Shown here in pieces: positions 12,274-43,141 of a stretch of 64,000 nucleotides of DNA. This DNA comes from a bacterium. Its GTDB lineage: Bacteria; UBA8248; JACPRG01; G963555815. Made by a program: the position numbers and the translations under genes. The stretch lies in assembly GCA_965261595.1 (NCBI GenBank), contig CBDHDG010000006.1, positions 960,001 to 1,024,000 on the forward strand. The letters run 5' to 3'. The notes below the pieces were generated by a model. It ran no database searches. It had not been told where the DNA came from and saw nothing but the letters and a program-made list of their open reading frames with translations. Numbering within the stretch: position 1 is the first letter of the stretch; each line of letters starts with the position of its first letter.

Positions 12274-12305
12274 TTGACTCCGTACCCGACTCCGGGGATT
12301 ATCTT
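12274..12305 (+). promoter_or_regulatory. MerR-type promoter/operator (merOP-like)
   Basis: TTGACT-CCGTACCCGACTCCGGGGAT-TATCTT. The -35 box and left half-site match Tn21/Tn501 PmerT (TTGACTCCGTAC). Long 19-20 bp spacer with an imperfect CCGTAC-N4-CTCCGG dyad. Confidence 0.85.
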
Positions 12306-12366
12306 GACGATCAGCCTTTGACCACGCCGATCGGCGACACGCCTTCTCCCCTAGGAGCTGAGGATA

Positions 12367-12612
12367 ATGGAACAGAAAGAGGTTACCCTATACACATCGA
12401 GCTTGTGAGCGTCTTGCAGAGGCGTGAAAGAGTTTCTTTCACATCACAGCATTCCCTACCAGGAGCACTTGATCGACCAAGACCAGGAAGCGATGAACAC
12501 CTTGGTTGAGAAAACCGGACGCAAAGCCACTCCCGTGCTTCTCATTGGCGAGGAAACCGTGGTGGGCTTTGACCGTCGAAAAATCTCGGACCTTTTGGAG
12601 ATTGGTCGATGA
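12367..12612 (+). CDS. Glutaredoxin/NrdH-like predicted selenoprotein (UxxC)
   Basis: MEQKEVTLYTSSL-U-ASC-RGVKEFL...TGRKATPVLLIG..VVGFD. In-frame TGA at 12406-12408 replaces the first Cys of CxxC. RBS present; SECIS-like hairpin follows. Confidence 0.88.
12424..12442 (+). promoter_or_regulatory. Candidate bacterial SECIS element
   Basis: Perfect 8-bp stem GTGAAAGA-GTT-TCTTTCAC starting 15 nt after the TGA; loop begins with G. Confidence 0.7.
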
Positions 12613-12968
12613 ACGCTTCAGAGCGAAGGCTCCGCTGCCCTGGCTGCGAAATGGACATTCCAGTCCCGTGGGACGCCAAGAACGGCGACGTTACTGAGTG
12701 TGAGAACTGCGCGGGTGTTCTGTTTCGCCTCTCCGAACAGGACGGCGGGGACATCCTGCGGCTCGTGCTGCTTGTCTCGTGTCCTTTCTGCGAGGAGACA
12801 ATCCCGGTGGACGATAACACGCCCGAGGGGACCGTCATTCGTCACGGGGGGGCGGAATTTTCGCTGACGAAGGAGTTCGGCGCTTTCTCGCTGGAGCTCG
12901 CCGGCGGCCAAAGACCCGGCCTGGTTCCGGCAGCGGACGCGGACAAAGCGCGAGGGACGGCAGGTTGA
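12609..12968 (+). CDS. Small Cys-rich tandem zinc-ribbon-like protein
   Basis: CPGC...CENC...CPFC...H. First half resembles the LysW-type ribbon but lacks the EDWGE tail. ATGA overlap with the glutaredoxin gene. Confidence 0.7.
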   Translation: MNASERRLRCPGCEMDIPVPWDAKNGDVTECENCAGVLFRLSEQDGGDILRLVLLVSCPFCEETIPVDDNTPEGTVIRHGGAEFSLTKEFGAFSLELAGGQRPGLVPAADADKARGTAG

Positions 12969-13267
12969 AGCCGCAAAGATCAATCACGGGAAAAATCATG
13001 CTGGGCGCGGCCTTCTTTCTGTGCCCCTGCCACCTGCCCATCTACCTGGCCCTGTTGGGCGGAACGGCCGCGGGCGCGCTGCTCTCCGAGAACGCGTACA
13101 CCGCCGGGGCCGTCCTGGCCCTCGCGTTCCTCGCGGCGCTCGTTCTGGGGTTGCGCATGCCGGGGAAGAACATTTCCAAGGCCGGGGCCGCCTCGGAGCG
13201 GGACCCATCCGATACCGGAGGGCAACCTCTCCGGCACGGTCGAATCCGGCGGGCGCCCCTTGGATGA
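12965..13267 (+). CDS. merE: MerE-like mercury transporter
   Basis: LCPCHLPIYLALLGGTAAGALLSE matches MerE (TCPCHLPIL...AGTTAGAFLGE). Two TM segments. Start could be the ATG at 12998. Confidence 0.8.
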   Translation: MKPQRSITGKIMLGAAFFLCPCHLPIYLALLGGTAAGALLSENAYTAGAVLALAFLAALVLGLRMPGKNISKAGAASERDPSDTGGQPLRHGRIRRAPLG

Positions 13268-13279
13268 GGGAGAATCGCG

Positions 13280-13618
13280 TTGCGCTTGAAAGAGGTATTT
13301 CCCGGAGCGGCCGGCGTCCTGACTTCCTTGGGGGCCTCCATCTGCTGCCTCCTCCCGCTCGCGGTGATTTACCTGGGACTCGGAACGGGATCCTTCATGG
13401 CAACGACCATGAAGTACCGCCCCATCGTATTTCCATTGGGGGTGATCGGCCTCGGCGCCGGTTACTTCCTTTACTTCCGGGAGCGAAAACGCTGTCGACG
13501 CGTGGCGTGCAGAATGGCGGGCTCCAAAATCAACCTGGCCTTGCTGGCGGCGGCGACGATCATCATGGCGGGTGTCGTGTGGGCCGATTTCTTCTCGGGC
13601 GTCCTGGCCATGATGTGA
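13280..13618 (+). CDS. merT: MerT-like mercury transporter
   Basis: LGASICCLLPL TM1 Cys pair, YRP, cytoplasmic CRRVAC pair, three TM helices. Confidence 0.82.
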   Translation: MRLKEVFPGAAGVLTSLGASICCLLPLAVIYLGLGTGSFMATTMKYRPIVFPLGVIGLGAGYFLYFRERKRCRRVACRMAGSKINLALLAAATIIMAGVVWADFFSGVLAMM

Positions 13619-13635
13619 CGCAAAAGGGGGAAGCG

Positions 13636-13968
13636 ATGTCAGGCGTGCATCGTCCGTGGAATGGGTTGAAATGTGTGGTTCTGGCGGCCGTCTTCGCCAT
13701 GGCGCTCGGCGGGTGCGAAGGAGACCCGGTTCCATCGGCCGAAGCCGGGGAGCGGGTGACTCTGAGGGTTTCGGGGATGACGTGAGGCGCCTGAGCGGTC
13801 ACCGCGAAACCAGCCTTGGAAAGGCTGGATGGAGTGAGAAAAGCCCGGGTGAGCCTCTCGAAGGGAGAGGCGTACGTCACGTATGACCCAAGCCGGGTCA
13901 CGGTGGCGCAGATGATTGCGGCCATCAACCGCCTGGGGTTCAAAGGCGGCATGAAAGAAGGATCGTAG
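13636..13968 (+). CDS. MerP-like HMA lipoprotein with two predicted selenocysteines (GMT-U-GA-U)
   Basis: Signal peptide with LGGC lipobox, then VTLRVSGMT-TGA(13783)-GGC-GCC-TGA(13792)-AVTAKPALERLDGVRKARVSLSKGEAYVTYDPSRVTVAQMIAAINRLGFK. Read-through gives a complete HMA fold, in the merP position after merT. Confidence 0.88.
13810..13828 (+). promoter_or_regulatory. Candidate bacterial SECIS element
   Basis: Perfect 8-bp stem CCAGCCTT-GGA-AAGGCTGG starting 15 nt after the second TGA; loop begins with G. Confidence 0.72.
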
Positions 13969-14073
13969 GCGGGCCTCGATGGGTCCGCGGAGAGGATTTC
14001 CGCTGATCGGATACGGCCGATGGTCCGGGTGGTCTCCTTCGGCCGGGATACGTTGAGTGGGGGCATGGACAAT

Positions 14074-14301
14074 ATGGAAGATAGAAAGCTGCTTCGCACG
14101 GGAGGCGCGGGGACGGTTGTTGCCGCGATTTGCTGTTTCACGCCGGCCCTCGTCCTGCTGTTCGGGGTGATGGGTCTATCGGCCTGGGTCGGTTGGCTGG
14201 ATTACGTCCTTTGGCCCGCGCTTGTGATATTTGCCGGAATGACGGTCTATGCCCTTATCCGGCTGAGGAAGAAACCATCCGTCCACCGCAAAGGGACCTG
14301 A
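14074..14301 (+). CDS. merF: MerF mercury transporter
   Basis: KLLRTG..GTVVAAICCFTPALVLLFG..GLSA..GWLDYVL.PAL..F matches MerF. Start 14065 or 14074. Confidence 0.88.
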   Translation: MEDRKLLRTGGAGTVVAAICCFTPALVLLFGVMGLSAWVGWLDYVLWPALVIFAGMTVYALIRLRKKPSVHRKGT

Positions 14302-14802
14302 TTCAAAGAAAGGCCGAATAATGAGGTTTTGGTCTTTTCTTCTTTCCATCAAGACACATCTCCCTTCGCCAAGACCAAAACTTTCCTCGCGAGCCGATCA
14401 AACCAATAGTTGAGGGGTCCAAGATGGCTGAGTCCTTGCGTTCCAAAGAGGGTTCCTTGACATTGATTGCCTTGATCGCGGGAGGGGTCTTGCCACTCCT
14501 GATCGTTTTTGGCTCCGCCCGTCTACTGCCCATGCCGACCCTTTTCTGGGCTGTCGGCGTCCCGGCGGAAATCGTTCTTTTTGGGGTTCTGCTCTACGCT
14601 CGTTCGGCCGGACCGGAGCGCTTGTATCGGAGGCTTTGGGTGGGGTGATCGGCGGCGTATTGCTCACCTTGTCATTGGATGCCGTCCGAACCGCAGGGGT
14701 CAACATCGGTTACCTTCCGGATTCCGTGTCGATGTTCGGGCGCTTGGAGTTGACCCGGTTTGGTGGACACCTGATGATTTGGGGGTAAAGGAGGTGTTCA
14801 CG

Positions 14803-15117
14803 ATGCCACAGACTCACCCACGCTATCCAATGGAGTTCCGCTGCCAGATGGTAGAGTTGGTCCGGGCGGGACGCACGCCCGAGGCGCTGGCGCACGAGTT
14901 CGAGCCCTCGGCGCAGACGATCCGCACCTGGGCCCATCAAGCCGACGTTGACGAGGGGCGTCGCAAAGACGGGCTCACGAGCGATGAGCGGGAGGAGTTG
15001 CGCCGACTTCGCCGCGAGAACCGACAGCTCCGCCAGGAGCGGGAGATCTTAGCAAAAGCCGCGGCCTGGTTTGCTCGGGAGACCGATTCGATCCCGTCCG
15101 GATCTACGGGTTCGTGA
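14803..15117 (+). CDS. IS3 transposase OrfA
   Basis: YPMEFRCQMVELV...TIRTW...LRRENRQLRQEREIL.KAAAWFA. Confidence 0.9.
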   Translation: MPQTHPRYPMEFRCQMVELVRAGRTPEALAHEFEPSAQTIRTWAHQADVDEGRRKDGLTSDEREELRRLRRENRQLRQEREILAKAAAWFARETDSIPSGSTGS

Positions 15118-15965
15118 GGGCGAACCAGGCCATGTATCGGACCGCCACCATGTGCCGGGTGCTGGGCGTCTCCTCCAGCGGCTACTACGCGTGGCGCAGG
15201 CGCGCGCCGTGTGCCCGCTCGTGTGCCGATCGGGCGCTCACCAAACGCATTCAGGCGATCCACGAGCGTTCTCGGGGGACTTACGGCGTGCCGCGCGTCC
15301 ATGCCGAGTTGGAGGCTGAGGGAGTGCGTGTGGGCCGCAAGCGCGTCGCCAGGCTGATGCGTGGGGCGGGACTTGCGGGCGTCAGTCGGCGCAAGGGAGC
15401 GCGCACGACGCAGCGCCGGCAGGAGGCGCGGCCGGCCCCTGATCTGGTGGACCGCAACTTCACGGCCGAGGCCCCCGACCGGCTGTGGGTGGCCGACATC
15501 ACCTACGTTCCGACATGGGCGGGGTTTTTGTATCTGGCCGTGGCGCTCGATGCGTTCAGCCGGCGCATCGTGGGGTGGTCGATGGCCACACACCTGCGGG
15601 CCGAGTTGGTGCTCGACGCGCTCGACATGGCGCTGTACAAGCGCCGTCCCCGGGCCGTCATCCACCACTCCGACCAGGGCAGCACGCAGTACACCTCGGT
15701 CGCCTTTGGGCAGCGCTGCCGGCAGGCGGGCGTGCGTCCCTCCATGGGTTCGGTCGGGGACTGCTACGACAACGCGCTGTGTGAGAGCTTTTTCGCCACG
15801 CTGGAGTGCGAGCTCCTCGCTCGCCACAGTTTCCGCACCCGGGCCGAGGCGCGCATGGAGGTGTTCGGGTTCATCGAGGGCTTCTACAACCCGCATCGTC
15901 GGCACTCCTCCATCGACAACCTGTCACCCGTTAACTACGAAAGGAGACAACAACGCACACCCTGA
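15114..15965 (+). CDS. IS3 transposase OrfB (DDE)
   Basis: WVADITY, HHSDQG..QY, DNALCESFF, YNPHRRHS. Confidence 0.93.
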   Translation: MRANQAMYRTATMCRVLGVSSSGYYAWRRRAPCARSCADRALTKRIQAIHERSRGTYGVPRVHAELEAEGVRVGRKRVARLMRGAGLAGVSRRKGARTTQRRQEARPAPDLVDRNFTAEAPDRLWVADITYVPTWAGFLYLAVALDAFSRRIVGWSMATHLRAELVLDALDMALYKRRPRAVIHHSDQGSTQYTSVAFGQRCRQAGVRPSMGSVGDCYDNALCESFFATLECELLARHSFRTRAEARMEVFGFIEGFYNPHRRHSSIDNLSPVNYERRQQRTP

Positions 15966-16289
15966 AAACCCAAGTGCTTAACTCTCCACGAAACCGGGGT
16001 AAGTCCATTGCGTTTGGAGTGGTCTATTCAATCCTTTTTGGAAAGACCCGATGGTGGGGCGCCGTGCTTTATAGCGTCTTCTTTGTAGAGCTTGGCATGA
16101 TGACCCTTCCACCGATGGCGAAAATGATGGGACCTTTCGGCGTCAACAAGTTCGGCACAATTTGGAACGGGATGTTCATAACCACATTGCTCGCTCACGC
16201 CGCGATGGGGGTTGTGCTCGGTGTTGTGATTCAGAAGTGGGGAAAGCACCCCGGTTTGTTTTTCTCAAGTAGAAGCATAGGCGCGTAGT

Positions 16290-16538
16290 GTGGTGCTATC
16301 GGAACTTCATATCGAGGGCATGACGTGACCCAAGTGCGTCAAACGGGTCCGTGAGTCCCTGAAAAAATCCCCGGGAGTTCAGGACGTCCAAGTTTCTTTG
16401 GAGACGGGACGGGCCGTTATTTGGATGAAAAAAGGAAGCCTACCCACAGAGGACCTCCTCGAACAGGTGGTGGAAGCGGCCAAAGGCGCCTTCCATTCCT
16501 ACGTCGCCCGCTGGGTTAAACCCCCCTCTTCGAATTAA
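16290..16538 (+). CDS. Cytoplasmic HMA-domain predicted selenoprotein (GMT-U-PK-C)
   Basis: GTG start; LSELHIEGMT-TGA(16326)-PKCVKRVRESLKKSPGVQDVQVSLETGRAVI... to TAA. A CopZ/NmerA-like fold after read-through. Not in the ORF track. Confidence 0.82.
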
Positions 16539-16687
16539 GCCGCATCCGCTGATTCGGAGAGTCATCAGCACCAAATCCCGAACCCTTTTCGGACTCCACG
16601 CAGATGAGACAATCAGAGAGACCCCGGCTGTCATCCAATGCTCCTCGAAGCCGATCTGGATTTTGAGGGAAGCGTTTGGAGAGCGAC

Positions 16688-18044
16688 ATGGCTTTAAAGT
16701 CATACGACCTCATCGTCATCGGAACGGGGTCTGCGGCCTCTGCGGCAGCATCCGAATGCCGCACCGCCGGGTGGACCGTGGCGGTTATCGATTCCCGTCC
16801 TTACGGGGGGACATGCGCCCTGCGCGGCTGCGACCCCAAGAAGGTGCTCGTCGCCGCGGCCGAGGCCCTCCACTGGGGGCATCGCTTGAGGGGCCGCGGG
16901 GTTCGTCCCGGCGATGCGCGGATCGACTGGCCCGAGTTGATGGACTTCAAGCGCACGTTCACCGAATCCGTGGCGCAGAGCCACGAGCGGTGGTTCGCCG
17001 AAGTCGGGATCGACGGATACCACGGGCGGGCGAAGTTTATCGGCCCCGTCTCTGTTCAAGTCGGCGGCGACGATCTGGAGGCCAAACACGTCTTCATCGC
17101 CTCCGGCGCCATGCCGGCCAGGCTCGGGATCCCGGGAGAAGGGCATCTGATCGCGAGCGAAGACTTCCTTGAGCTGGACGAGCTGCCGGAGCGTATCGTT
17201 TTCGTGGGGGGCGGCTACATCTCCATGGAGTTCGCGACCGTTTCCGTCTGCGCCGGAGCTGAGGTCACCGTCCTTCACCGGGGTCCGCGACTCCTGCGTG
17301 GATTCGATCCCGGCTCGGCGGACTTGGTCGCGGAGGCGGCTCGCGGGAGCGGCATCGACCTGAAGTTGGAGACTCGGGTCGAAAGCATAACAAAGACTGC
17401 CGGCGGCTTTGTCGTTGAGGCATCCTCACCCGCGGGATCGCAAACGGTTGAAGCCGACTTGGTGGTGCACGGCGCCGGTCGGGTGGCTGAGATTGAGGAT
17501 CTCGACCTGGGAGCGGCCGGCGTGGAGCGGGGGAAGCGGGGAGTATTGGTGAACGAGTATCTGCAAAGCACCTCGAATCCGGCGGTCTATGCAGCGGGAG
17601 ACGCGGCGCGAAACGGAAGGACAGCCTCTCACGCCCGTGGCAGGGGTCGAAGGAGGGGTTGTGGCAGCAAATCTATTAAATGGGAACAAAGTTAAGCCTG
17701 ATTACACCGGAACGGCAACAGTGGCATTCACATTGCCGCCGATTGCCGCGGTGGGACTGAGAGAAGATGAAGCCAGGAAGAAGGGGCTCAAGTTTCAGGT
17801 GAATTTCCAGGACACGTCTGGATGGTATTCGACACGGCGCATGGGCGAGAAATACTCGGCATCCAAGGTGTTGGTCGAGGAAGACACGGGGCGGCTGCTC
17901 GGTGCGCACCTCCTCGGGCCGTCTGCGGATGAGCTGATCAACCTCTTTGCGCTTGCCATCCGCCACGGTCTCACCGCCGAGGGTCTAAAGGAGGTGATCT
18001 TCGCGTATCCGACGCACGCGTCTGACGTGGGTTATATGGTCTGA
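16688..18044 (+). pseudogene. Class I pyridine nucleotide-disulfide oxidoreductase (glutathione-reductase-like), frameshifted near 17608
   Basis: YDLIVIGTGSA, GGTCALRGCDPKK, GGGYI, VYAAGD in one frame, then QPLTPVA...GAHLLG...YPTHASD in another. The single extra base may be real or an assembly error. Confidence 0.85.
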
Positions 18045-18100
18045 AGAGCACGCCCTTTGTCCAATTTCGTGATGAGAAAGGGTCATTTGGGAGATGTCAA

Positions 18101-18717
18101 ATGGAAACCTCAAAATTGCCTCAGCTCAGAGAGCATTTCAATCAGGCATGCGATTCCGTGAGGGTTCTTACAATCCTCTCTCCTACCTAACCCGTATGTC
18201 ACTACGGGCATGGAGTTGTCCGGAAGCTCTTCGAGGAGATTGACGCGAATGCGCTCAAGGGTTTTTCAATATGGCTTCCCATCATGGACGGGGACAACGC
18301 CGATGCCGCGAGGGCCGAATCAGAGAATTTCCCGGATGAACGGGTAGAGCACAGTTGGGATTCCGAAGGACAATTTGGCCGGCTCTTTGCGAAGTTTCTC
18401 AATTTGAAAGGTGTCGCGTGGGATGTTCACTTGCTCTACGCGCCGGGTGTCACCTGGGGTGTGGATGAGCCGCCCAAACCTGCATTCTGGATGCACCAAC
18501 TTCCTCCAGTAACGGGAGCCGATGGGAAACTTCTTTGAACCCAGGTAGATTTTCACACGAGCTGATGAATCTCCTTGGAAGAGAGGATCCGCATATGGCT
18601 TGGGATATGGCCTTTATGTTGCACGTTGGCGGTATTGGCGGGGTCATGAGGGAGAGGGCTCAGTCTTCACTGGAAGAGGTCCTCAAGGCCGTCGATCCTA
18701 CGAAGGAAGGACCGTGA
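18101..18717 (+). pseudogene. Thioredoxin-fold protein with TAA at the predicted Sec position (SPT*PVC) and a frameshift near 18535
   Basis: METSKLPQLREHFN...VRVLTILSPT-TAA(18188)-PVCHYG... is in frame with the 18284 ORF (WLPIM...WDVHLLY...W...PAFWMHQL). The C-terminus continues in a shifted frame. Confidence 0.7.
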
Positions 18718-18721
18718 ATCG

Positions 18722-19150
18722 ATGAAGAATTGCCCGGAGGTTCCTATGGAATCCTTGACGATCGAAAAGGTCGCCCGCGGGGCGGGTGTGAACGTCGAGA
18801 CGGTTCGCTACTACGAGCGCAGGGGGCTGATCGAGCGGCCAACCAGCCGGCGGGGGGCTTACCGGGTCTATCCGTCCGAGACCGTCGGCCGCATCCTGAG
18901 CATCAAGCGCGCCCAGCGGCTCGGGTTCTCCCTGGATGAGATCAAAGAGCTGTTGGCCATGCGATCGGACGCCCGGGCCCGGTGCGGCGACGTGCGCGTC
19001 CAGGCCGAGCGGAAGATGGCCGAGATTGAGGAGAAGATCAAGGCCCTGCGGGCCGTGAAGAAATCGCTCGGCAAGCTCGCCGACGCCTGCCGGAGGGAGC
19101 TGCCTGTGACGGAGTGCCCGATTCTGAAAAACCTGAGCGGGGTTTCCTGA
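18722..19150 (+). CDS. merR: MerR-family metal-responsive regulator
   Basis: LTI..VA..AGVNVETVRYYERRGL, IKRAQRLGFSLDEIKELL. Three Cys (RCGD, ACRR, ECPIL) at Hg-MerR-like positions. Start could be 18746. Confidence 0.88.
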   Translation: MKNCPEVPMESLTIEKVARGAGVNVETVRYYERRGLIERPTSRRGAYRVYPSETVGRILSIKRAQRLGFSLDEIKELLAMRSDARARCGDVRVQAERKMAEIEEKIKALRAVKKSLGKLADACRRELPVTECPILKNLSGVS

Positions 19151-22418: not shown

Positions 22419-23557
22419 CTAGGAGTTTTGAATGGTCTCGACAGCCCAATTGAATGTTTCGAGAAATTGATCAAGACGGTTCTCGTCCCTCAGCACAGAT
22501 AATATGATGGAAGGACGTTTGGTAATTCGGTTCTCTGGAATATCTACACCCGGAGTCTGATTTAGCCGGTCCCGTAGACTCAGCCGGTTGGATTCTATGC
22601 TGAATGGTTTCTTTTCTTTCATTATCTGAAATTGAACCTCGATGGTCCCATAAGTCCACACAGAAATTAAAGAATGGGTTATTCCTTTATGATGCAGTAA
22701 TAGAAAAAATGACCCCGATCGGTTTCCTTTTCCCCACCATATTTGAAGGTTCTTGTCTATTGCCCAGTTCAAAATTCTTCTTGTAACCTGCGCATCCTGT
22801 TCACCCTTTCTATTGAGAAGTTCATCAAAGAAGGGTTTTTCATCCCATTGTTTTTCAGCTCGGGTTCTACCAGACCTCCTTTGCTGTGCCTCGGCGGTCT
22901 GCCCCATAACTCGGGGACCAGGGTTTTTAATCCTTCGCTTATGTATTGCCGAATCTCAACAGCCAAGACCTCTGCCGGGTCCATTTGAGAATTCAAGAAT
23001 TCCACTATGCGACGAAGCTCCCCCGGAATTTCATCAGCGACGAAGACTAGGCGCACCCTGCCCGCCTGTAGGTTGGTTTTTACGGTTTGCCAAAACATCT
23101 GGAGATCCCCATCTGTGCCTAAAAACTCCTTCAGAATTCCGTCCGGATTATAGCCATGTGTTTCGCACCTTGTTTCGAACTTTGCTTGAATCGTTTCGAC
23201 AGGCCAATAGACAACGGCATTAGCTGCGTAGTCGAGCATTTGACCAATGACTTCCCGTCGAATCCGTGTATCGGAGCTTCGCTTGACCTCTACCAAGGTA
23301 GGAATTGCATCTTGATCGAGAAACAAATGATCGACGGACCAGCGCTCTCTCCCTTCTTCCTCCGATGCCAAGCCGGCTTCACGCGAAACCAACAACCATT
23401 TTCTGGGCTCATCGCTGTCAATTTGGTCACCCGCCAAAAGGTCAGGATATTTCTCAAGGAGTTCCTGAAGCAATTCCTCCGAATCGTAAGGCTGCTCCTT
23501 CATCTCAACAAGTCGACCATCATCCTGGATCAAGAAAATTCCCCCGCCCATGCCCAT
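22419..23557 (-). pseudogene. PD-(D/E)XK (NucS/DUF91-like) nuclease-domain protein, frameshifted near 22915
   Basis: E..LQ, VDHLFLD...LVEVK...Q.LDYA. One extra C in a C-run would join LKTLVP to RVMGQTAE. AT-richer than its neighbours. Confidence 0.7.
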
Positions 23558-29204: not shown

Positions 29205-31160
29205 ATGGATCTATCAGGAATCGATACCGTCTTGAAGGAGGGGCGGACGTTTGAGCCGCCCAAGGGATTCGCTGAAAACGCCCATATCAAATCCATCGAG
29301 GAATACCGAAAGCTCCATGACGAGGCCGTCAACTCCCCCGAGACGTTCTGGGGCCGATACGCGGAAGAGCTTCACTGGTTCAAGAAGTGGGACAAGGTTC
29401 TGGAATGGGAAGAGCCTTTTGCGAAGTGGTTCGTCGGGGGGCAAACCAACATTTCCTACAACTGCCTGGACCGGCACCTGGACACCCACCGCCGGGACAA
29501 GCCCGCCCTCATCTGGGAGGGCGAGCCGGGCGACAGCCGCACCCTCACCTACGCCGAGCTTCACAAAGAGGTCTGCAAATTCGCCAACGCCCTCAAGGGG
29601 TTGGGCATCGGGAAGGGCGACCGCGTCTGCATCTACATGCCCCAGACGCCGGAATCCGCCATCGCCATGCTGGCCTGCGCCCGCATCGGCGCGCCCCACA
29701 CCGTCGTCTTCGCCGGCTTCAGCGCCCCCTCTCTGCGAGACCGCATCAACGACGCCGAGGCCAAGGCCGTCCTCACGGCGGACGCCGGCTGGCGGCGCGG
29801 AAAAGAGGTGCCCCTGAAGGCGAACACCGACAACGCGGTCAAGGACTGCCCCTGCGTGGAGCACGTCGTCGTCCTCAAGCGCGTCGGGAACGACATCGAT
29901 TTTCAACCGGGCCGGGACCACTGGTACCACGACCTGATGGAATCCGCCTCGGAATACTGCCCCGCCGAGCCGCTCGACTCCGAGCATCCCCTCTACATCC
30001 TCTACACCAGCGGGACGACCGGAAAGCCCAAGGGCATCCTCCACACCACGGGCGGCTACATGGTGGGGACGTACCTCACGTGCAAGTGGGTCTTCGACCT
30101 CAAGGACGAGGACGTTTACTGGTGCACGGCGGACATCGGCTGGGTGACCGGGCACAGCTACATCGTGTACGGCCCCCTCGCCAACGGCGCGACGAGCGTC
30201 ATGTACGAGGGCGCGCCCAACCACCCGGACCCGGGCCGGTTCTGGGCCATCGTCGAGAAATTCAAGGTCAACACCTTCTACACCGCCCCCACGGCCATCC
30301 GCGCCTTCATCAAATGGGGCGACGAGTGGCCGGGCAAGCACGACCTCTCAAGCCTGCGCCTCCTGGGAACGGTGGGCGAGCCCATCAACCCGGAGGTCTG
30401 GATCTGGTACCGCAAGACCATCGGCGCCGACCGCTGTCCCATCGTGGACACTTGGTGGCAGACCGAAACCGGGATGATCCTGATCACGCCCCTTCCGGGC
30501 GCGACGACCACAAAGCCCGGCTCGGCCACCCTGCCCTTCCCGGGCGTCGTGCCGGACATCGTGACGAAGGGCGGGAAATCGGTGGGGCCGGAGGGGGGCG
30601 GGCTCCTGGTCCTCAAGCGGCCCTGGCCCGCGATGCTGCGCACCATTTACGGCGACCCGGAGCGCTACAAGGAAACGTACTGGTCGGACATCCCCGGCGC
30701 CTACTTCACGGGGGACGGCGCCCGGCGCGACAAAGACGGATATTTCTGGATCATGGGCCGGGTGGACGATGTCATCAACATCTCCGGCCACCGCCTGGGC
30801 ACGATGGAGGTAGAAAGCGCCCTGGTCTCGCACCCCGACGTCGCCGAAGCCGCCGTCGTCGGCATCCCGCACGAGCTGAAGGGGCAGGGCATCGCCGGCT
30901 TCATCACCCTTCAGGGCAGCAAAGAACAGTCGAAAGAGTTGGAAGCGCGGCTCCGCGAGCATGTGGTCCAGGAAATCGGCGCCATCGCCCGACCGGACCA
31001 ACTCCGTTTCACCGACGCCCTTCCCAAGACCCGGAGCGGGAAGATCATGCGGCGGCTTTTGCGCGACATCGCCTCCGGAAAACCGGAGCTTGGGGACACG
31101 ACGACCCTGGAAGACATCTCTGTCCTTCAATCCCTTCGGGGGTACGAGGACGAGGGATAG
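29205..31160 (+). CDS. acs: Acetyl-CoA synthetase (AMP-forming)
   Basis: [46 protein letters not shown]. Confidence 0.96.
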
Positions 31161-31175
31161 TCGGCGGGCCGGGGT

Positions 31176-31559
31176 TCAGGCCCGCTCCAGGGTGACGGGC
31201 GCTCCGTCGGGGACGCGGGTGAAGCGGGCGGCGTCTCCCTCGACAAATCCGATGGGGTTCACGTCGCTTGCGGCGCGGGGCGCGTTGCCCCCGCCGGCGG
31301 GCGTCGGTCCGAAGAAGATGCAAAACGCCGAGCCGGGGGGCCAGTAGGCGATCTCCCCCACGGCCATTTCGACCCGGGCGTCTGCTTCGGCGGGGCATTC
31401 AACGGGGATGGAGAAGTAGATCTCCTCCCCCCAGCGGTTGGCGGTCCCTTGGATGGGCAGGGCGTCCCAGATTCGATCGGCCGTGGGACCATCGTTCAGG
31501 CCGGCCCGCGCTTCCACGTCGCCCGCCAGGATGCGGATTCGCCGCCCGGTTTCGGTCAT
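31176..31559 (-). CDS. Cyclophilin-like fold protein (DUF369-like)
   Basis: RWGEEIYF, GEIAYWPPG.AFCIFFG.TP, VN.IG. Confidence 0.8.
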   Translation of the reverse strand: MTETGRRIRILAGDVEARAGLNDGPTADRIWDALPIQGTANRWGEEIYFSIPVECPAEADARVEMAVGEIAYWPPGSAFCIFFGPTPAGGGNAPRAASDVNPIGFVEGDAARFTRVPDGAPVTLERA

Positions 31560-31697
31560 GTCGGCGCGCTCCTCACACCGTTGCGCCGATCATCCGGACC
31601 GGCGCGCGGGAAAAGGCGGTTGACAACGACGGTTCCGCCGATAACATAAACGGCGAATTTCCGCGGGTTCAGGACAAAACAGGCGATCACGAATCCT

Positions 31698-32720
31698 ATG
31701 GTATCGTCCTCCTCATCGACGAGCAAGACAGAGGTGTCCTATGCGGAGGCCCTGGAGCATCTTCAGGGCGATCTGAACGCGGTGGAGGAGGCCCTCACCA
31801 CCCACCTGAATTCCGACGTGCCGTTGATCCCCTCTATCGGCCACTACCTGGCCCGCGGGGGCGGTAAGCGCATCCGCCCCACCCTGGTGCTGCTGTCCTC
31901 CAAGCTGTGCGGTTACGAGGGGGACCGGTGCATCACCAATTCCTGTCTGGTTGAATTCATCCATACGGCGACGCTGTTGCACGACGACGTCGTGGACGCT
32001 TCGGAGATGAGGCGCGGGGCGCCTTCGGCCAACGCCCGCTGGGGCAACGAGGCCAGCGTCCTGGTGGGCGATTACCTGTTCGCCAAGGCCCTGTGGCTCA
32101 TGGCGTCGGACGGCGATCTGGACATCCTCCGCGTCGTGTCCGGCGCCACGGTCTTCCTCTCGGAAGGCGAAGTCCTCCAGCTCATCAACGAGTACAACCT
32201 CGCCTCCACCGAGGAGAGCTACCTGGATGTGATCTACCGCAAGACGGCGGCCTTGATGGCCACGTCCTGCCGCATCGGCGGCATCCTGGGGAACATGTCC
32301 CGGGAGATCGAAGAACAACTGGGGGTGATCGGCTCGAACATCGGGTCCGCCTTCCAACTGGTGGACGACTCCCTGGATTACATGGCCCGGGCGGACCGGA
32401 TCGGAAAACCCGTCGGGCAGGACCTCTCCGACGGAAACGTCACCCTTCCCCTGATCCACCTCTACCGCTCGGCGGATGAGGAGGAAAGACAGCGGATTCG
32501 CCATGTCTTCTTCGAGTCCAACGGAACCCCGGACGGAAAGCTCGATTCCATCCTCAACATGATGAAAAAGCACGGGTCCATCGCGTACACCCTGTCCCGG
32601 GCCGCCGACTTCGTCGAGCGGGCGAAGGCCTCCCTGCGCGAGTTGCCGGACAACCTGGACCCCTTCTACCGCAACGCCCTCATCTCCCTGGCCGATTACA
32701 TCGTCGAGCGGGACCGGTAG
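31698..32720 (+). CDS. All-trans polyprenyl diphosphate synthase (IspB-like)
   Basis: GGKRIRP, LLHDDVVD...RRG, GDYL, KTA, FQLVDD.LD. Confidence 0.93.
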   Translation: MVSSSSSTSKTEVSYAEALEHLQGDLNAVEEALTTHLNSDVPLIPSIGHYLARGGGKRIRPTLVLLSSKLCGYEGDRCITNSCLVEFIHTATLLHDDVVDASEMRRGAPSANARWGNEASVLVGDYLFAKALWLMASDGDLDILRVVSGATVFLSEGEVLQLINEYNLASTEESYLDVIYRKTAALMATSCRIGGILGNMSREIEEQLGVIGSNIGSAFQLVDDSLDYMARADRIGKPVGQDLSDGNVTLPLIHLYRSADEEERQRIRHVFFESNGTPDGKLDSILNMMKKHGSIAYTLSRAADFVERAKASLRELPDNLDPFYRNALISLADYIVERDR

Positions 32721-32912
32721 GGCGTGTCTCGTATATGGTTTTACATATTGAGCCCTGAATTGTCCCTTTCCGGCCGGACAAGGAGTCAACCGACTCAAAC
32801 GCCCGGCCTACCAAACGGTGGATAGCCGGTTTTTCAAACTTAGGTGGGGCGGGCATCTTGCCCGCCATCTCCGGAACCCGAAAGCAACAAACGCCAATCA
32901 AAAGGAAAAACC

Positions 32913-33188
32913 GTGGCCGGAAAATCCATCGGCTCCCTGATTCTCTTCATGGTTGTGGGCGGTCTCGTGGGGAGCGTTCTGGGCGAAATTCTCGGCCGTC
33001 TCGCGGGGCAGGGATTCTGGAACAACATCCTGACCACGGGCGTCCACTTCGGCGTTCAGGATCCGGTCCATCAACCCATCGCCGTCAATCTGGGCATTGT
33101 CATCCTTTCCTTCGGGCTCGCCATCAAGGTCTCCCTTCTCGGCATCCTCGGCCTGGTCGTAGGCGTGGTTCTGCACCGGAAGCTCTGA
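32913..33188 (+). CDS. DUF4321-like small membrane protein
   Basis: Two hydrophobic segments with G..GS..GE and NLG...FGL...SL.GILG; directly upstream of maf. Confidence 0.75.
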   Translation: MAGKSIGSLILFMVVGGLVGSVLGEILGRLAGQGFWNNILTTGVHFGVQDPVHQPIAVNLGIVILSFGLAIKVSLLGILGLVVGVVLHRKL

Positions 33189-33196
33189 ATCAGGAC

Positions 33197-33859
33197 ATGA
33201 CGTCTCCCCCCCTGGTCCTGGCCTCCGCCTCACCCCGCCGAAAACACCTTCTCGAACAAGCCGGCTTGGTCTTCGAGGTCCTGCCTGCCGACGTGGAGGA
33301 GCGCTACAACGGAGAACCGCCGGAAGAATTCGCCGGAAGGTGCTCAGCCCGCAAGGCCGCCGAGGTCTTCCCCCTTCGGCCCGCGGCGGCGGTCGTGGCG
33401 GCAGACACGATCGTCGTCCTGTGCGACCGCGCTTCGGGAAAAGACCGTGTGCTCGGGAAACCGGCCGGGCCGGCGGAGGCCCGCTCCATGCTGGCCGGGC
33501 TCAGCGGCCGGGAGCACCGCGTCATCACGGGTGTCACCGTCCGGCGGGGAAAGGAAGAGCGGACCGGCGCCCGGGAGACCCGCGTGCGTTTTCGGACGCT
33601 CGACCCGGAGACGATCGGCCGCTATGTCGCCACGGGCGAGCCGCTGGACAAGGCAGGGGCTTACGGAATCCAGGACCGCGGCGTTCACTTGGTCGAGAGC
33701 CTGGAAGGTTGTTACACTAATGTGGTGGGTCTTCCGCTCGGGCTCTTGAGAGAGCTTCTTCTCGGCGTGGGGCTGGACGCCCTCCCGCCAAGTCCGTGCG
33801 GCGCGTTCGCCAAATCGAAGGAAGTCGAGGAATGCCTCAACCGGACACGGCGCTCCTGA
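33197..33859 (+). CDS. maf: Maf-family nucleoside triphosphate pyrophosphatase
   Basis: LVLASASPRR, ADT, LGKP, DKAGAYGIQ, NVVGLP. Confidence 0.93.
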   Translation: MTSPPLVLASASPRRKHLLEQAGLVFEVLPADVEERYNGEPPEEFAGRCSARKAAEVFPLRPAAAVVAADTIVVLCDRASGKDRVLGKPAGPAEARSMLAGLSGREHRVITGVTVRRGKEERTGARETRVRFRTLDPETIGRYVATGEPLDKAGAYGIQDRGVHLVESLEGCYTNVVGLPLGLLRELLLGVGLDALPPSPCGAFAKSKEVEECLNRTRRS

Positions 33860-40778: not shown

Positions 40779-41045
40779 GTGTCCCAACCCACAGTCGTCA
40801 TCTACACGACTGATCCATGCGGATACTGCAAGATGGCGAAAACCCTTTTCGATAAGAAAGGGGTTGCGTATGAAGAGAAAATGGTTTTCGGCGGAACCCC
40901 CGAATGGGAAGAAATGCTGACCGTCACCGACGGCGCCAAGACCGTGCCCCAGGTTCTGATCGATGGCCGGACCGTAGGGGGGTATCCGGATCTGTTGAAA
41001 CTCCAAAAGTCCGGAGAGCTGGATTCGCTCTTGAACCTCGCTTGA
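40779..41045 (+). CDS. grxC: Glutaredoxin 3
   Basis: CGYC, TVPQV.I, GGY.DL. Confidence 0.88.
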   Translation: MSQPTVVIYTTDPCGYCKMAKTLFDKKGVAYEEKMVFGGTPEWEEMLTVTDGAKTVPQVLIDGRTVGGYPDLLKLQKSGELDSLLNLA

Positions 41046-41197: not shown

Positions 41198-43141
41198 ATG
41201 GTCAAAGACGCAAGTTTGCCTGTAGAGCGCGCTCCGGAACGGGACGCTCTCTCGCGAACCCGGGACACGAAAAAGGTGGTCGATCGCGCCCGGGATTGGA
41301 TGCTGGCGCGTCAGGATCAGGAAGAGGGTTTTTGGGTCGCCGAGCTCCAGGCGGACACAACCCTGACGTCGGACTATGTGATGTTGAGGGCCTTCCTGGG
41401 CGCCCTCGACGAAAGGATCAAGCGGAAAGCCGTCCGGCATCTGGAGATGGAACAGCTTCCCGACGGAGGCTGGAACACCTACGCGGGCGGCCCGTCGGAA
41501 ATCAACGCGACCGTCAAGGCCTACTTCGCCCTCAAGCTGGCGGGGCTCAAGCAGGACGCCCCCATGCTCCTCCGCGCCCTGGAGGCGGTCCACCGGCTGG
41601 GCGGACTCGAGCGAGCCAACCTCTTCACCAAAATCTACCTGGCGCTCCACGGACAAGTGGATTGGGAGCACATTCCATCCATGCCGGTGGAGCTCATCTT
41701 CGCGCCCAACTGGCTTTACATCAACATTTATGAGTTCTCTTACTGGACCCGGACGATCATTGTGCCGTTGTTCATCATCGCGGCCCTTAAACCGAAAAAG
41801 CAGGTCCTCCCCCCGGACGCGTTGAAGGAGCTCTACCTGAGGGGACCCTCCAAAGCGGACTGGTTTCAGAATGGAGACCGGACCTTCCTGCGCACCCTGT
41901 TCATGATCGGGGACTCCGTTCTGAAGTTCCTGGAAAAGAAGCAAATCTCCGAGATCCGGGCCCGCGCCGTCCAGAAGGCCGAAAAATGGATACTTGAGCG
42001 CCATTTCAAGACCGACGGCCTCGGGGCCATCTACCCCGCGATGGCCAACGCCATCATCGCCATGAAGGCCCTGGGGTACGACGAGAAGGAAAATCCCACC
42101 CTGGCCAAAGCCCTCCGGGATTTTGAAGACCTGGTCATCGAAGAACCGGATCATCTTCGGGTCCAGCCCTGCGTATCGCCCGTCTGGGACACCGCCCTCG
42201 CTTGTTACGCCTTGCGGGAAGCCGGGGTCTCCGGCGAGCATCCGGCCCTGGTGAAGGCCGCCAACTGGCTCCTGGACAAACAAACCCGCACCAAGGGCGA
42301 CTGGCAGGTCAAGGGAAACGGCATGCAGGCGGGGGGCTGGTATTTTCAGTTTCAGAACGAGTACTACCCCGACAACGACGACACCAGCGCCGTTCTGATA
42401 GGTCTTCAAAAAATCGACGTCCGTGACGAAAAACGCAAGGCCGAGGCCATCGATCGGGGCCTCCAGTGGGTTCTCCACATGCAGTGCAAGGACGGCGGTT
42501 GGAGCGCCTTCGAGCGAAACGTCAACAAGGTCATTCTGAACAGCATCCCCTACGCCGATCACGGCGCGGTCCTGGACCCCAGCACGTCCGACCTGACGGG
42601 CAGGGTCCTGGAGCTGCTGGGGCGGTTCGGCCACAACAGGACAAGCCCCGCCGTGCGCCGGGCCGTCCGGTTCCTGAAAAAAGAGCAGGAGTACGACGGA
42701 TGCTGGTACGGGCGTTGGGGCGTCAATTACATCTACGGCACCTATCTGGTCCTTCAAGGCCTTGCCAGCGTGAAAGCGGACATGACCGCCCCTTACCTCA
42801 GGAAGGCCGTCCGGTGGCTGATGGATCACCAGAACGAAGACGGGGGCTGGGGCGAAACGATCGCGTCGTACGAAAATCCCGACCTGCGCGGGCAGGGACC
42901 GAGCACGCCCTCCCAAACCGCCTGGGCGATCACCGGACTGATGGCCGCCGGGGAGATCCAACATCCGGCCGTATCGCGGGGCGTCGATTTCCTCCTGGAC
43001 CGACAAACACACGATGGGACCTGGGAAGAAGAAGAATGGACGGGCACGGGCTTCCCCAAGGTCTTTTATCTGCGGTATCACTTCTATCGCCATTACTTCC
43101 CCCTCGCGGCCCTCGGACGCTATCACCGCCTCACCGCTTGA
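41198..43141 (+). CDS. shc: Squalene-hopene cyclase
   Basis: QW repeats, SPVWDT, YPDNDDT (DxDD), GRWGVNYIYGT, GTGFPKVFYL.Y. Confidence 0.96.
   Translation: MVKDASLPVERAPERDALSRTRDTKKVVDRARDWMLARQDQEEGFWVAELQADTTLTSDYVMLRAFLGALDERIKRKAVRHLEMEQLPDGGWNTYAGGPSEINATVKAYFALKLAGLKQDAPMLLRALEAVHRLGGLERANLFTKIYLALHGQVDWEHIPSMPVELIFAPNWLYINIYEFSYWTRTIIVPLFIIAALKPKKQVLPPDALKELYLRGPSKADWFQNGDRTFLRTLFMIGDSVLKFLEKKQISEIRARAVQKAEKWILERHFKTDGLGAIYPAMANAIIAMKALGYDEKENPTLAKALRDFEDLVIEEPDHLRVQPCVSPVWDTALACYALREAGVSGEHPALVKAANWLLDKQTRTKGDWQVKGNGMQAGGWYFQFQNEYYPDNDDTSAVLIGLQKIDVRDEKRKAEAIDRGLQWVLHMQCKDGGWSAFERNVNKVILNSIPYADHGAVLDPSTSDLTGRVLELLGRFGHNRTSPAVRRAVRFLKKEQEYDGCWYGRWGVNYIYGTYLVLQGLASVKADMTAPYLRKAVRWLMDHQNEDGGWGETIASYENPDLRGQGPSTPSQTAWAITGLMAAGEIQHPAVSRGVDFLLDRQTHDGTWEEEEWTGTGFPKVFYLRYHFYRHYFPLAALGRYHRLTA

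Follow-up and report, generated by a model that had tools for sequence, protein, structure and literature searches.

Can a mercury-resistance (mer) operon be built around selenocysteine (Sec)? The question is raised by positions 12274–19150 of the window, a 64,000-nucleotide stretch of a 6.17 Mb genome assembled in seven contigs; named homologues carry the labels Nitrospinota or Tectomicrobia, which, for a phylum with one class and 51 genomes, suggests GTDB UBA8248. On the + strand lie a promoter and, after it, genes for a glutaredoxin (grx), a LysW-like tandem zinc ribbon, MerE, a MerT-like protein, a MerP-like HMA protein, MerF, a membrane protein, a second HMA protein, a flavin disulfide reductase, a thioredoxin-fold (Trx) protein and MerR. 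This confirms the order and identities proposed in a first-pass annotation made from the sequence alone (PF00462, PF21344, PF05052, PF02411 below its cut-off, PF00403 twice and NF033565, besides the flavin disulfide reductase and the MerR-family regulator). We favour, with somewhat more confidence than doubt, the interpretation that the cluster is a variant mer operon of a selenoprotein-rich lineage, controlled by MerR, with Sec at soft-metal sites and partly decayed, mercury being the presumed inducer and substrate and the hand-offs between its proteins being presumed as well.

All four genes of the Sec machinery, for which a genome search had been suggested, were found: selA, selB and selD score above their cut-offs, a tRNA-Sec (selC) is present, and selD itself carries a TGA. 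In the cluster, in-frame TGAs occur at 12406, 13783, 13792 and 16326, each in place of a Cys in a CxxC motif. To follow them in relatives we used the zinc-ribbon gene as the marker of the cluster; it is present in 29 of the 50 other genomes of the phylum (one class, 51 genomes). Many of these are incomplete drafts, and absences reported below mean not found in the genomes searched.

The glutaredoxin (12367–12612, +; PF00462, YruB/NrdH-like) has an intact frame and a UxxC motif formed by the TGA at 12406. All 30 genomes with the cluster, this one included, have this TGA, and none has the Cys form. A hairpin resembling a Sec insertion sequence (SECIS) lies 15 nt past the UGA (12424–12442, +). 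Over 23 distinct rows, 91.8% of cells are paired and three of eight pairs have changed on both sides; the hairpin outscores shuffled and slid controls, relatedness inflating such counts. The grx TGA almost certainly encodes Sec, to judge from this conservation and covariation.

The MerP-like HMA protein (13636–13968, +; NF041115, 98.1 bits, cut-off 95) reads GMT-U-GA-U through the TGAs at 13783 and 13792 and shows, by inspection, a lipoprotein-like signal (LGGC). Folding places a hairpin at 13810–13828, after the second UGA and at the same spacing as in grx. The orthologue in genome G003 keeps both TGAs and scores 99.6 against NF041115. Unconserved TGAs followed by decayed frames had been named as the pattern that would argue against Sec; for grx and MerP the downstream frames are conserved, and across homologues the TGAs of the cluster are kept (grx, MerP) or exchange with Cys (Trx).

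The fourth TGA is a different case. The second HMA protein (16290–16538, +; PF00403) reads GMT-(TGA)-PKC at 16326. Apart from CopA-type domains, no homologue was found in the 50 phylum genomes, and none in the protein set searched. Its hairpin reaches −3.9 kcal/mol; those in grx, in Trx and after the second TGA of merP reach −9.2 to −12.4 kcal/mol. SECIS-like hairpins are clear at these three sites and at the second zinc-ribbon site, and weak at the second HMA and first zinc-ribbon sites. The placement of all four TGAs on CxxC motifs stands as first described, and the grx and MerP sites are conserved; for the second HMA gene the Sec reading found no support, and its TGA could tentatively be taken as a nonsense mutation, which we think rather less than an even prospect. 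That all the TGAs are nonsense mutations in a pseudogenized operon is very improbable, and for grx and MerP it is refuted: the locus does carry true lesions, a TGA-to-TAA change among them, but the grx TGA is universal and followed by a covarying hairpin, and the MerP TGAs are kept in G003 within a curated UxxU family. Machinery, conservation, hairpins and syntenic relatives support Sec decoding of the cluster, and from them we infer incorporation.

Two further proteins look like selenoprotein families that have not been listed. The tandem zinc-ribbon protein (12609–12968, +; PF21344; best fold match LysW, E 0.024) has only Cys in this strain. In relatives the first knuckle, the second or both carry CxxU, and TGA stands at Cys positions in 18 of the 29 relatives and in the close locus L213. 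The hairpin at site 2 has a mean z of −2.5; that at site 1 has −0.85, weaker than in the Cys forms. Nine of 16 aligned database homologues start just past the first knuckle. The zinc-ribbon Cys of this strain is TGA in both L213 and L155. Against these two loci, the grx and zinc-ribbon genes (12367–12968) show dS values of 0.54–0.93 and the flanking housekeeping genes 0.09–0.18, an excess that suggests allele replacement through recombination.

The second candidate is the Trx protein (18101–18717, +), a TlpA/DsbE-like protein with an SPT-U/C-xxC motif (model pLDDT 86; Foldseek match to DsbE, E 7e-5). The first-pass annotation had noted a stop in its motif. The codon at 18188 is TAA here and in sequencing run X1, and TGA in runs X3 and X6, from two other studies, and in L213; a sequencing error is ruled out by X1, and TAA is a strain allele. 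Over 80 homologous loci this codon is TGA in 45 and Cys in 35, and 28 of the 80 have a metal-resistance neighbour. On this comparison, the codon at 18188 is a fifth predicted Sec site, lost in this strain. We found no dedicated NCBIfam or Pfam selenoprotein model for the zinc ribbon or the SPT-U thioredoxin. Neither a LysW-like CxxU zinc ribbon nor an SPT-U thioredoxin is named in Table 1 of PMC13188914 as far as the accessible text goes, and the thioredoxin could fall within its generic UxxC classes.

The control region and transporters are of mer type. The promoter (12274–12305, +) has a −35 box TTGACT, a 20-nt spacer and a −10 box TATCTT, with the dyad CCGTAC-N4-CTCCGG, so that a merOP dyad lies within a long-spacer promoter as in canonical mer operons. 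Its left half-site CCGTAC is identical in three canonical merA loci (L053, L056, L094), in agreement with the merOP-like promoter first proposed. The right half matches at four of six positions here, and the dyads of G008, G012 and G034 are perfect (relatives' operators were scored by eye). A sigma-70 scan, whose pattern admits no spacers of 19–20 nt, was uninformative for this promoter. MerR (18746–19150, +) has TIGR02051 as its best model, at 129 bits below the cut-off of 150.85, and has the three Cys of Hg-type MerR, which align with those of two canonical MerRs; a conserved N-terminal Gly is replaced by Glu, a change specific to this branch. Sensors of Cd, Zn and Pb retain these three Cys too.

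Three Mer-family transporter genes have intact frames. MerE (12965–13267, +; motif CPCH) scores 35 bits against PF05052 (cut-off 22.8) and falls below the cut-off of NF010310. The MerT-like protein (13280–13618, +; PF02411, E 6e-5, below cut-off) has two Cys pairs, one of them a CC pair in the membrane, and its counterpart in G003 is 78% identical. MerF (14065–14301, +; NF033565, 94 bits, cut-off 50) lacks the C-terminal Cys pair. MerF, the Pfam MerE match and the HMA domain are thus above their cut-offs and the MerT-like protein is below.

The reductase gene (16688–18044, +) carries CALRGC-D and YPT motifs and is frameshifted; both halves match PDB entry 8K40 first (E 2.3e-74 and 9.5e-33). 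Its C-terminus is YPTHASDVGYMV, without a CC pair. The intact orthologue in G008 has 8K40 as its top match at E 4.8e-128, the runner-up being at 2.9e-66. By sequence features and length, 8K40 and 8K41 correspond to GbsMerA of Gelidibacter salicanalis as described in the accessible part of PMC10587081. According to that text GbsMerA has neither the N-terminal HMA domain nor the C-terminal Cys pair and uses Asp47 and Tyr437; it shows Hg(II)-dependent NADPH oxidation, its Y437F mutant is dead, and its gene, which adjoins merT/P, raised the Hg resistance of E. coli. In alignments with 8K40 the window's protein shows the same Asp after CxxxxC, Tyr at the His position in YPT, and neither NmerA nor a CC tail; the frame is broken here and intact in G008. 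The best NCBIfam model is glutathione reductase, below cut-off, and the protein is also below the MerA cut-off. No MerA (TIGR02053) above cut-off and no MerB match were found in the whole genome, so canonical merA or merB genes elsewhere in it were rejected as candidates. The view that the operon has no canonical MerA therefore holds for the TIGR02053 score and the missing tail; what it left out is that the reductase belongs to a published type of non-canonical mercuric reductase. A second flavin disulfide reductase gene, seemingly split over two frames, lies elsewhere in the genome (L008, G000:C7:11328-12697).

MerB-family matches do occur in 13 of the 51 phylum genomes (L206 and L208 among them), with an in-frame TGA in 13 of the 15 places listed; they are possibly a Sec MerB-like family, although the Sec position was not found by motif search.

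The operon, at first described as complete, has three broken genes in this strain. The membrane gene (14424–16288, +), which encodes a DUF6789-like protein, has a 1-nt deletion near 14643, an IS3 insertion and 78 missing nt; an intact orthologue with 82–88% identity exists in G003. The DUF6789 label comes from an Atlas lead and applies to 13–15% of cluster members. The IS3-family element (14745–16007, +; 1263 bp; NF033516, 347 bits) lies inside this gene without a target duplication. In run X6 it is absent, and in its place are 78 other bases, which match the 26 residues that the intact G003 orthologue has there. The genome contains 33 full near-identical copies of the element (≥97%) and many insertion sequences of other families; a target duplication of 3–4 nt accompanies just 10 of the 33, which suggests frequent deletions linked to insertion sequences. 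The reductase gene has a +1 frameshift, an extra base near 17608–17620. Contigs of three of four sequencing runs (X1, X3, X6) span both frameshifts, near 14643 and 17610, and none corrects them; both are therefore real, and long-read error is ruled out. A further break in the Trx gene at 18533 is an assembly error, because all three covering runs have an extra base there, and that gene is broken by the TAA at 18188. The reductase, membrane and Trx genes are dead in this strain, and with the reductase broken, Hg reduction through this copy has probably been lost.

The genes from grx to merF remain open frames. Surviving genes have dN/dS values of 0.14–0.40 (flanking housekeeping genes, 0.06–0.30), which marks the lesions as recent and rules out long-term neutral decay. 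Decay has struck the same chromosomal site in relatives: in G001 a deletion has removed everything between merT codon 26 and the 3′ end of the Trx gene, and L213 is without merT, merP, the membrane gene, the second HMA gene and the reductase.

In the regions fetched from the 29 relatives, at least one mer-type gene stands beside grx and the zinc ribbon in 16, and an operator of mer type precedes grx in 11. The other 13 relatives, all of genus g7, have no mer-type gene there and no such operator; in g7 the pair usually lies upstream of trxB. HMA domains of the U-P-x-x-U type (UxxxU), with hairpins, occur in seven relatives, mostly as MerT fusions. The fullest intact set is that of G008: grx(U), zinc ribbon, merF, a Csac_0668/CopZ-like chaperone, merT-HMA(U,U), merE, a second HMA piece, the reductase and merR. 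In this locus (L034, G008:C16 ~31000-33600) the second HMA piece and the reductase lie between the copies of a direct repeat made up of the end of merE and the start of merR. G034, of the same genus, has no such block, which may reflect gain, loss by recombination or misassembly. The GbsMerA-type gene occurs in this genome and G008 only, and canonical MerA in G031 alone, which has no zinc ribbon; near-cut-off MerA-like matches checked in the relatives have no CC tail, G031 excepted. Outside the phylum, two Acidobacteriota loci reached with the MerP query (L040, L052) combine grx(U) and Trx(U) with merT, a Cys-type merP and this reductase; selA is present in both genomes. The scan with that query gave 80 loci, but its patterns require Cys codons, so the HMA motifs read are Cys forms and do not measure the spread of Sec. 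A further HMA protein (GMI-U-PI-U) in G003 (L035:3450-3707, G003:C231) adjoins an outer-membrane-like gene, a permease and merR.

From G008, G003, L213 and the sister strains we infer how the intact operon would work, with Hg as inducer and substrate and with each hand-off. Hg(II) would bind MerR and activate the long-spacer merOP promoter. The membrane-anchored MerP-like protein, with its two selenocysteines, would capture Hg(II) outside the inner membrane, and MerT, MerE and MerF would bring it in. The NADPH flavoenzyme of GbsMerA type, which has neither N-terminal HMA nor C-terminal Cys pair, would reduce Hg(II) to Hg(0). Metal buffering or thiol repair would fall to the Sec-glutaredoxin, the zinc ribbon and the SPT-U thioredoxin, which may also replace the Cys relay that the reductase lacks.

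Several observations weigh against this interpretation. MerR, MerT and MerE all fall below their NCBIfam cut-offs. Grx(U) and a Sec zinc ribbon persist in the 13 g7 genomes, where operator and mer genes are missing. Only two of the 51 genomes have this reductase and one has canonical MerA, yet 16 of 29 carriers keep a mer-type gene. According to the accessible text of PMC10587081, GbsMerA also turns over Ag(I), at 50% activity, and some GSSG, less than Hg(II), and it was assayed by NADPH oxidation and disc diffusion, not by release of Hg(0). A search with the reductase alone over 251 genomes of one Acidobacteriota class hit 15 places, in 13 of the genomes. With the seed locus and G129, which is unpublished, left out, 13 loci were counted, two of them short contigs; two of the 13 adjoin merP or merR. 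By this comparison the reductase family is not mer-specific. In one acidobacterial genome (L310, L314) a DUF6789-like membrane gene and a GbsMerA-type reductase are separated by one gene, with no mer genes. Finally, in the sole RNA run (X19) the Sec genes are without cover; the run covers only the insertion sequence and one 194-nt piece of the reductase, at a depth of 2.7, and so gives no evidence on expression either way.

Part of this evidence fits a view that is compatible with the one we favour and falls only a little short of an even chance, namely that selenium is a background trait of the lineage. An ordinary mer-like cluster would then belong to a lineage where Sec has taken the place of Cys in many CxxC proteins, and grx and the zinc ribbon would be a general redox pair captured by a mer promoter. 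Nine of 18 AhpC/TSA matches in the genome carry a TGA. A CopA-type P-ATPase (L212, G000:C7:776432-776608) has a C-terminal HMA domain with MH-(TGA)-GGC, that is, UxxC. In Table 2 of PMC13326102 the ten bacteria richest in selenoproteins include three UBA8248 genomes, with 48–54 genes. The persistence of grx(U) with the zinc ribbon in g7 and the alternation of Cys and Sec in the zinc ribbon point the same way. A mere background of exchange is less easily reconciled with the absence of a Cys grx from all 30 genomes, with the Sec grx and Sec Trx inside mer-like loci of Acidobacteriota, or with the metal-resistance neighbours at 28 of the 80 SPT-U/C loci. Because Sec is common throughout the genome, an Hg-specific adaptation is unproven. 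The selenium-based Hg or soft-metal system first proposed is therefore upheld in its Sec decoding and its MerR-controlled design of mer type; Hg-specific capture by selenium is one possible reading.

A second alternative dispenses with the reductase. MerR-controlled Sec MerP/HMA proteins, Grx and zinc ribbon would sequester Hg(II) or methylmercury, so that the reductase would be optional and its loss tolerated; this is unlikely, but deserves serious weight. Such a trap, needing no reductase, would account for the lack of both types of MerA in most carriers of the phylum: G008 apart, none of the 29 has this reductase or a MerA above cut-off, and in G003, G012, G022 and G034, which keep merT-type genes and double-Sec HMA domains, no reductase was found. 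The upstream half is intact in this strain, with the dN/dS values given above. Selenolates bind Hg more tightly than thiolates, and hand-off from a selenolate to a Cys-based MerT would be uphill. Against this, the four genomes are drafts, 88–100% complete, in many contigs, and stoichiometric binding leaves the import proteins unexplained. Transporter genes are moreover broken or deleted in G001, G016, G024, G033, G049 and L213, as expected where import without reduction harms. Classical mer genetics has found such import harmful, which would explain the repeated transporter loss. We give little credence to the stronger form of the proposal, in which Hg is bound by the double-Sec HMA, the Sec-Grx and the Sec zinc ribbon or stored in them, possibly as Hg-Se, without any mercuric reductase.

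It is still less probable, and in our opinion doubtful, that the cluster deals not with Hg but with a different soft metal (Ag, Cu or Cd) or with disulfide stress in general. The Ag(I) and GSSG activities of GbsMerA, the glutathione-reductase model that fits the reductase best, the CopZ-like chaperone of relatives and the 11 of 13 reductase loci without mer neighbours speak for it. Set against these are the operator half-site shared with canonical mer loci, the Hg-type model and three Cys of MerR, and the three Mer-family transporters.

Compared with the canonical mer operon (Tn21/Tn501: merR, merOP, merT, merP, merE/F, merA), the variant operon that we favour shares the long-spacer promoter, CCGTAC, a three-Cys MerR, MerT/MerE/MerF, a MerP-like HMA protein and a flavin disulfide reductase. 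It differs in having Sec in MerP and in accessory redoxins, and in the extra Grx, zinc-ribbon, Trx and membrane genes. Its merR is last and co-oriented, its spacer measures 20 nt where the three canonical loci examined have 19, its reductase is without N-terminal HMA and C-terminal CC, and merB and merD are missing from the cluster. The GbsMerA operon (PMC10587081, accessible part) shares the type of reductase (CALRGCD, the YPT Tyr, no CC tail) and its place beside merT/P; it is arranged as ArsR-merT/P-merA-hypothetical, the text at hand mentions no selenoproteins, and the window's reductase is frameshifted. In PMC13188914, as far as its accessible text goes, Table 1 lists the NF041115-type UxxU protein, the family of the window's MerP-like protein, as a 'putative mercuric reductase', together with a Grx UxxC and a putative Sec mercuric transporter. 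They appear there as single families whose roles need more study, and we found no description in that text of one MerR-controlled operon. The SAO system (bioRxiv 10.1101/2022.07.06.499078, accessible part) likewise has several selenoproteins per locus and a proposed role with heavy metals or organometals; it is built on CU motifs, a MerB-like lyase and an ABC transporter, and none of these genes occurs in the window's cluster; its authors argue against a role in resistance. Carriers of merA and merB in UBA8248 are reported in PMC12484752, the accessible part of which does not mention selenium. Our literature search found no paper on mer operons that encode selenoproteins, nor on zinc ribbons with Sec, most subscription journals being outside its coverage.

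Elsewhere in the window, an ordinary Cys glutaredoxin is encoded at 40779–41045, and an open reading frame at 41198–43141 resembles, by inspection, squalene-hopene cyclase. A two-gene stretch of low GC content (0.47–0.50) at 22419–23557 (− strand) lies between genes for a DinG-like helicase and a purH-like protein.

The cluster is real and conserved and, as a unit, seems not to have been described before. Because gene callers cut the proteins and the reductase falls below the MerA cut-off, such operons would escape surveys of mer genes. The copy described here is damaged, which lessens its value as a study example. Selenols are the chief cellular targets of mercury, and for this reason a mercury-resistance operon built with Sec is counter-intuitive. 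It would offer a direct test of the part of selenium in the capture, relay or trapping of Hg in bacteria, for which the intact natural versions in G008, G003 and L213 supply Sec/Cys pairs.

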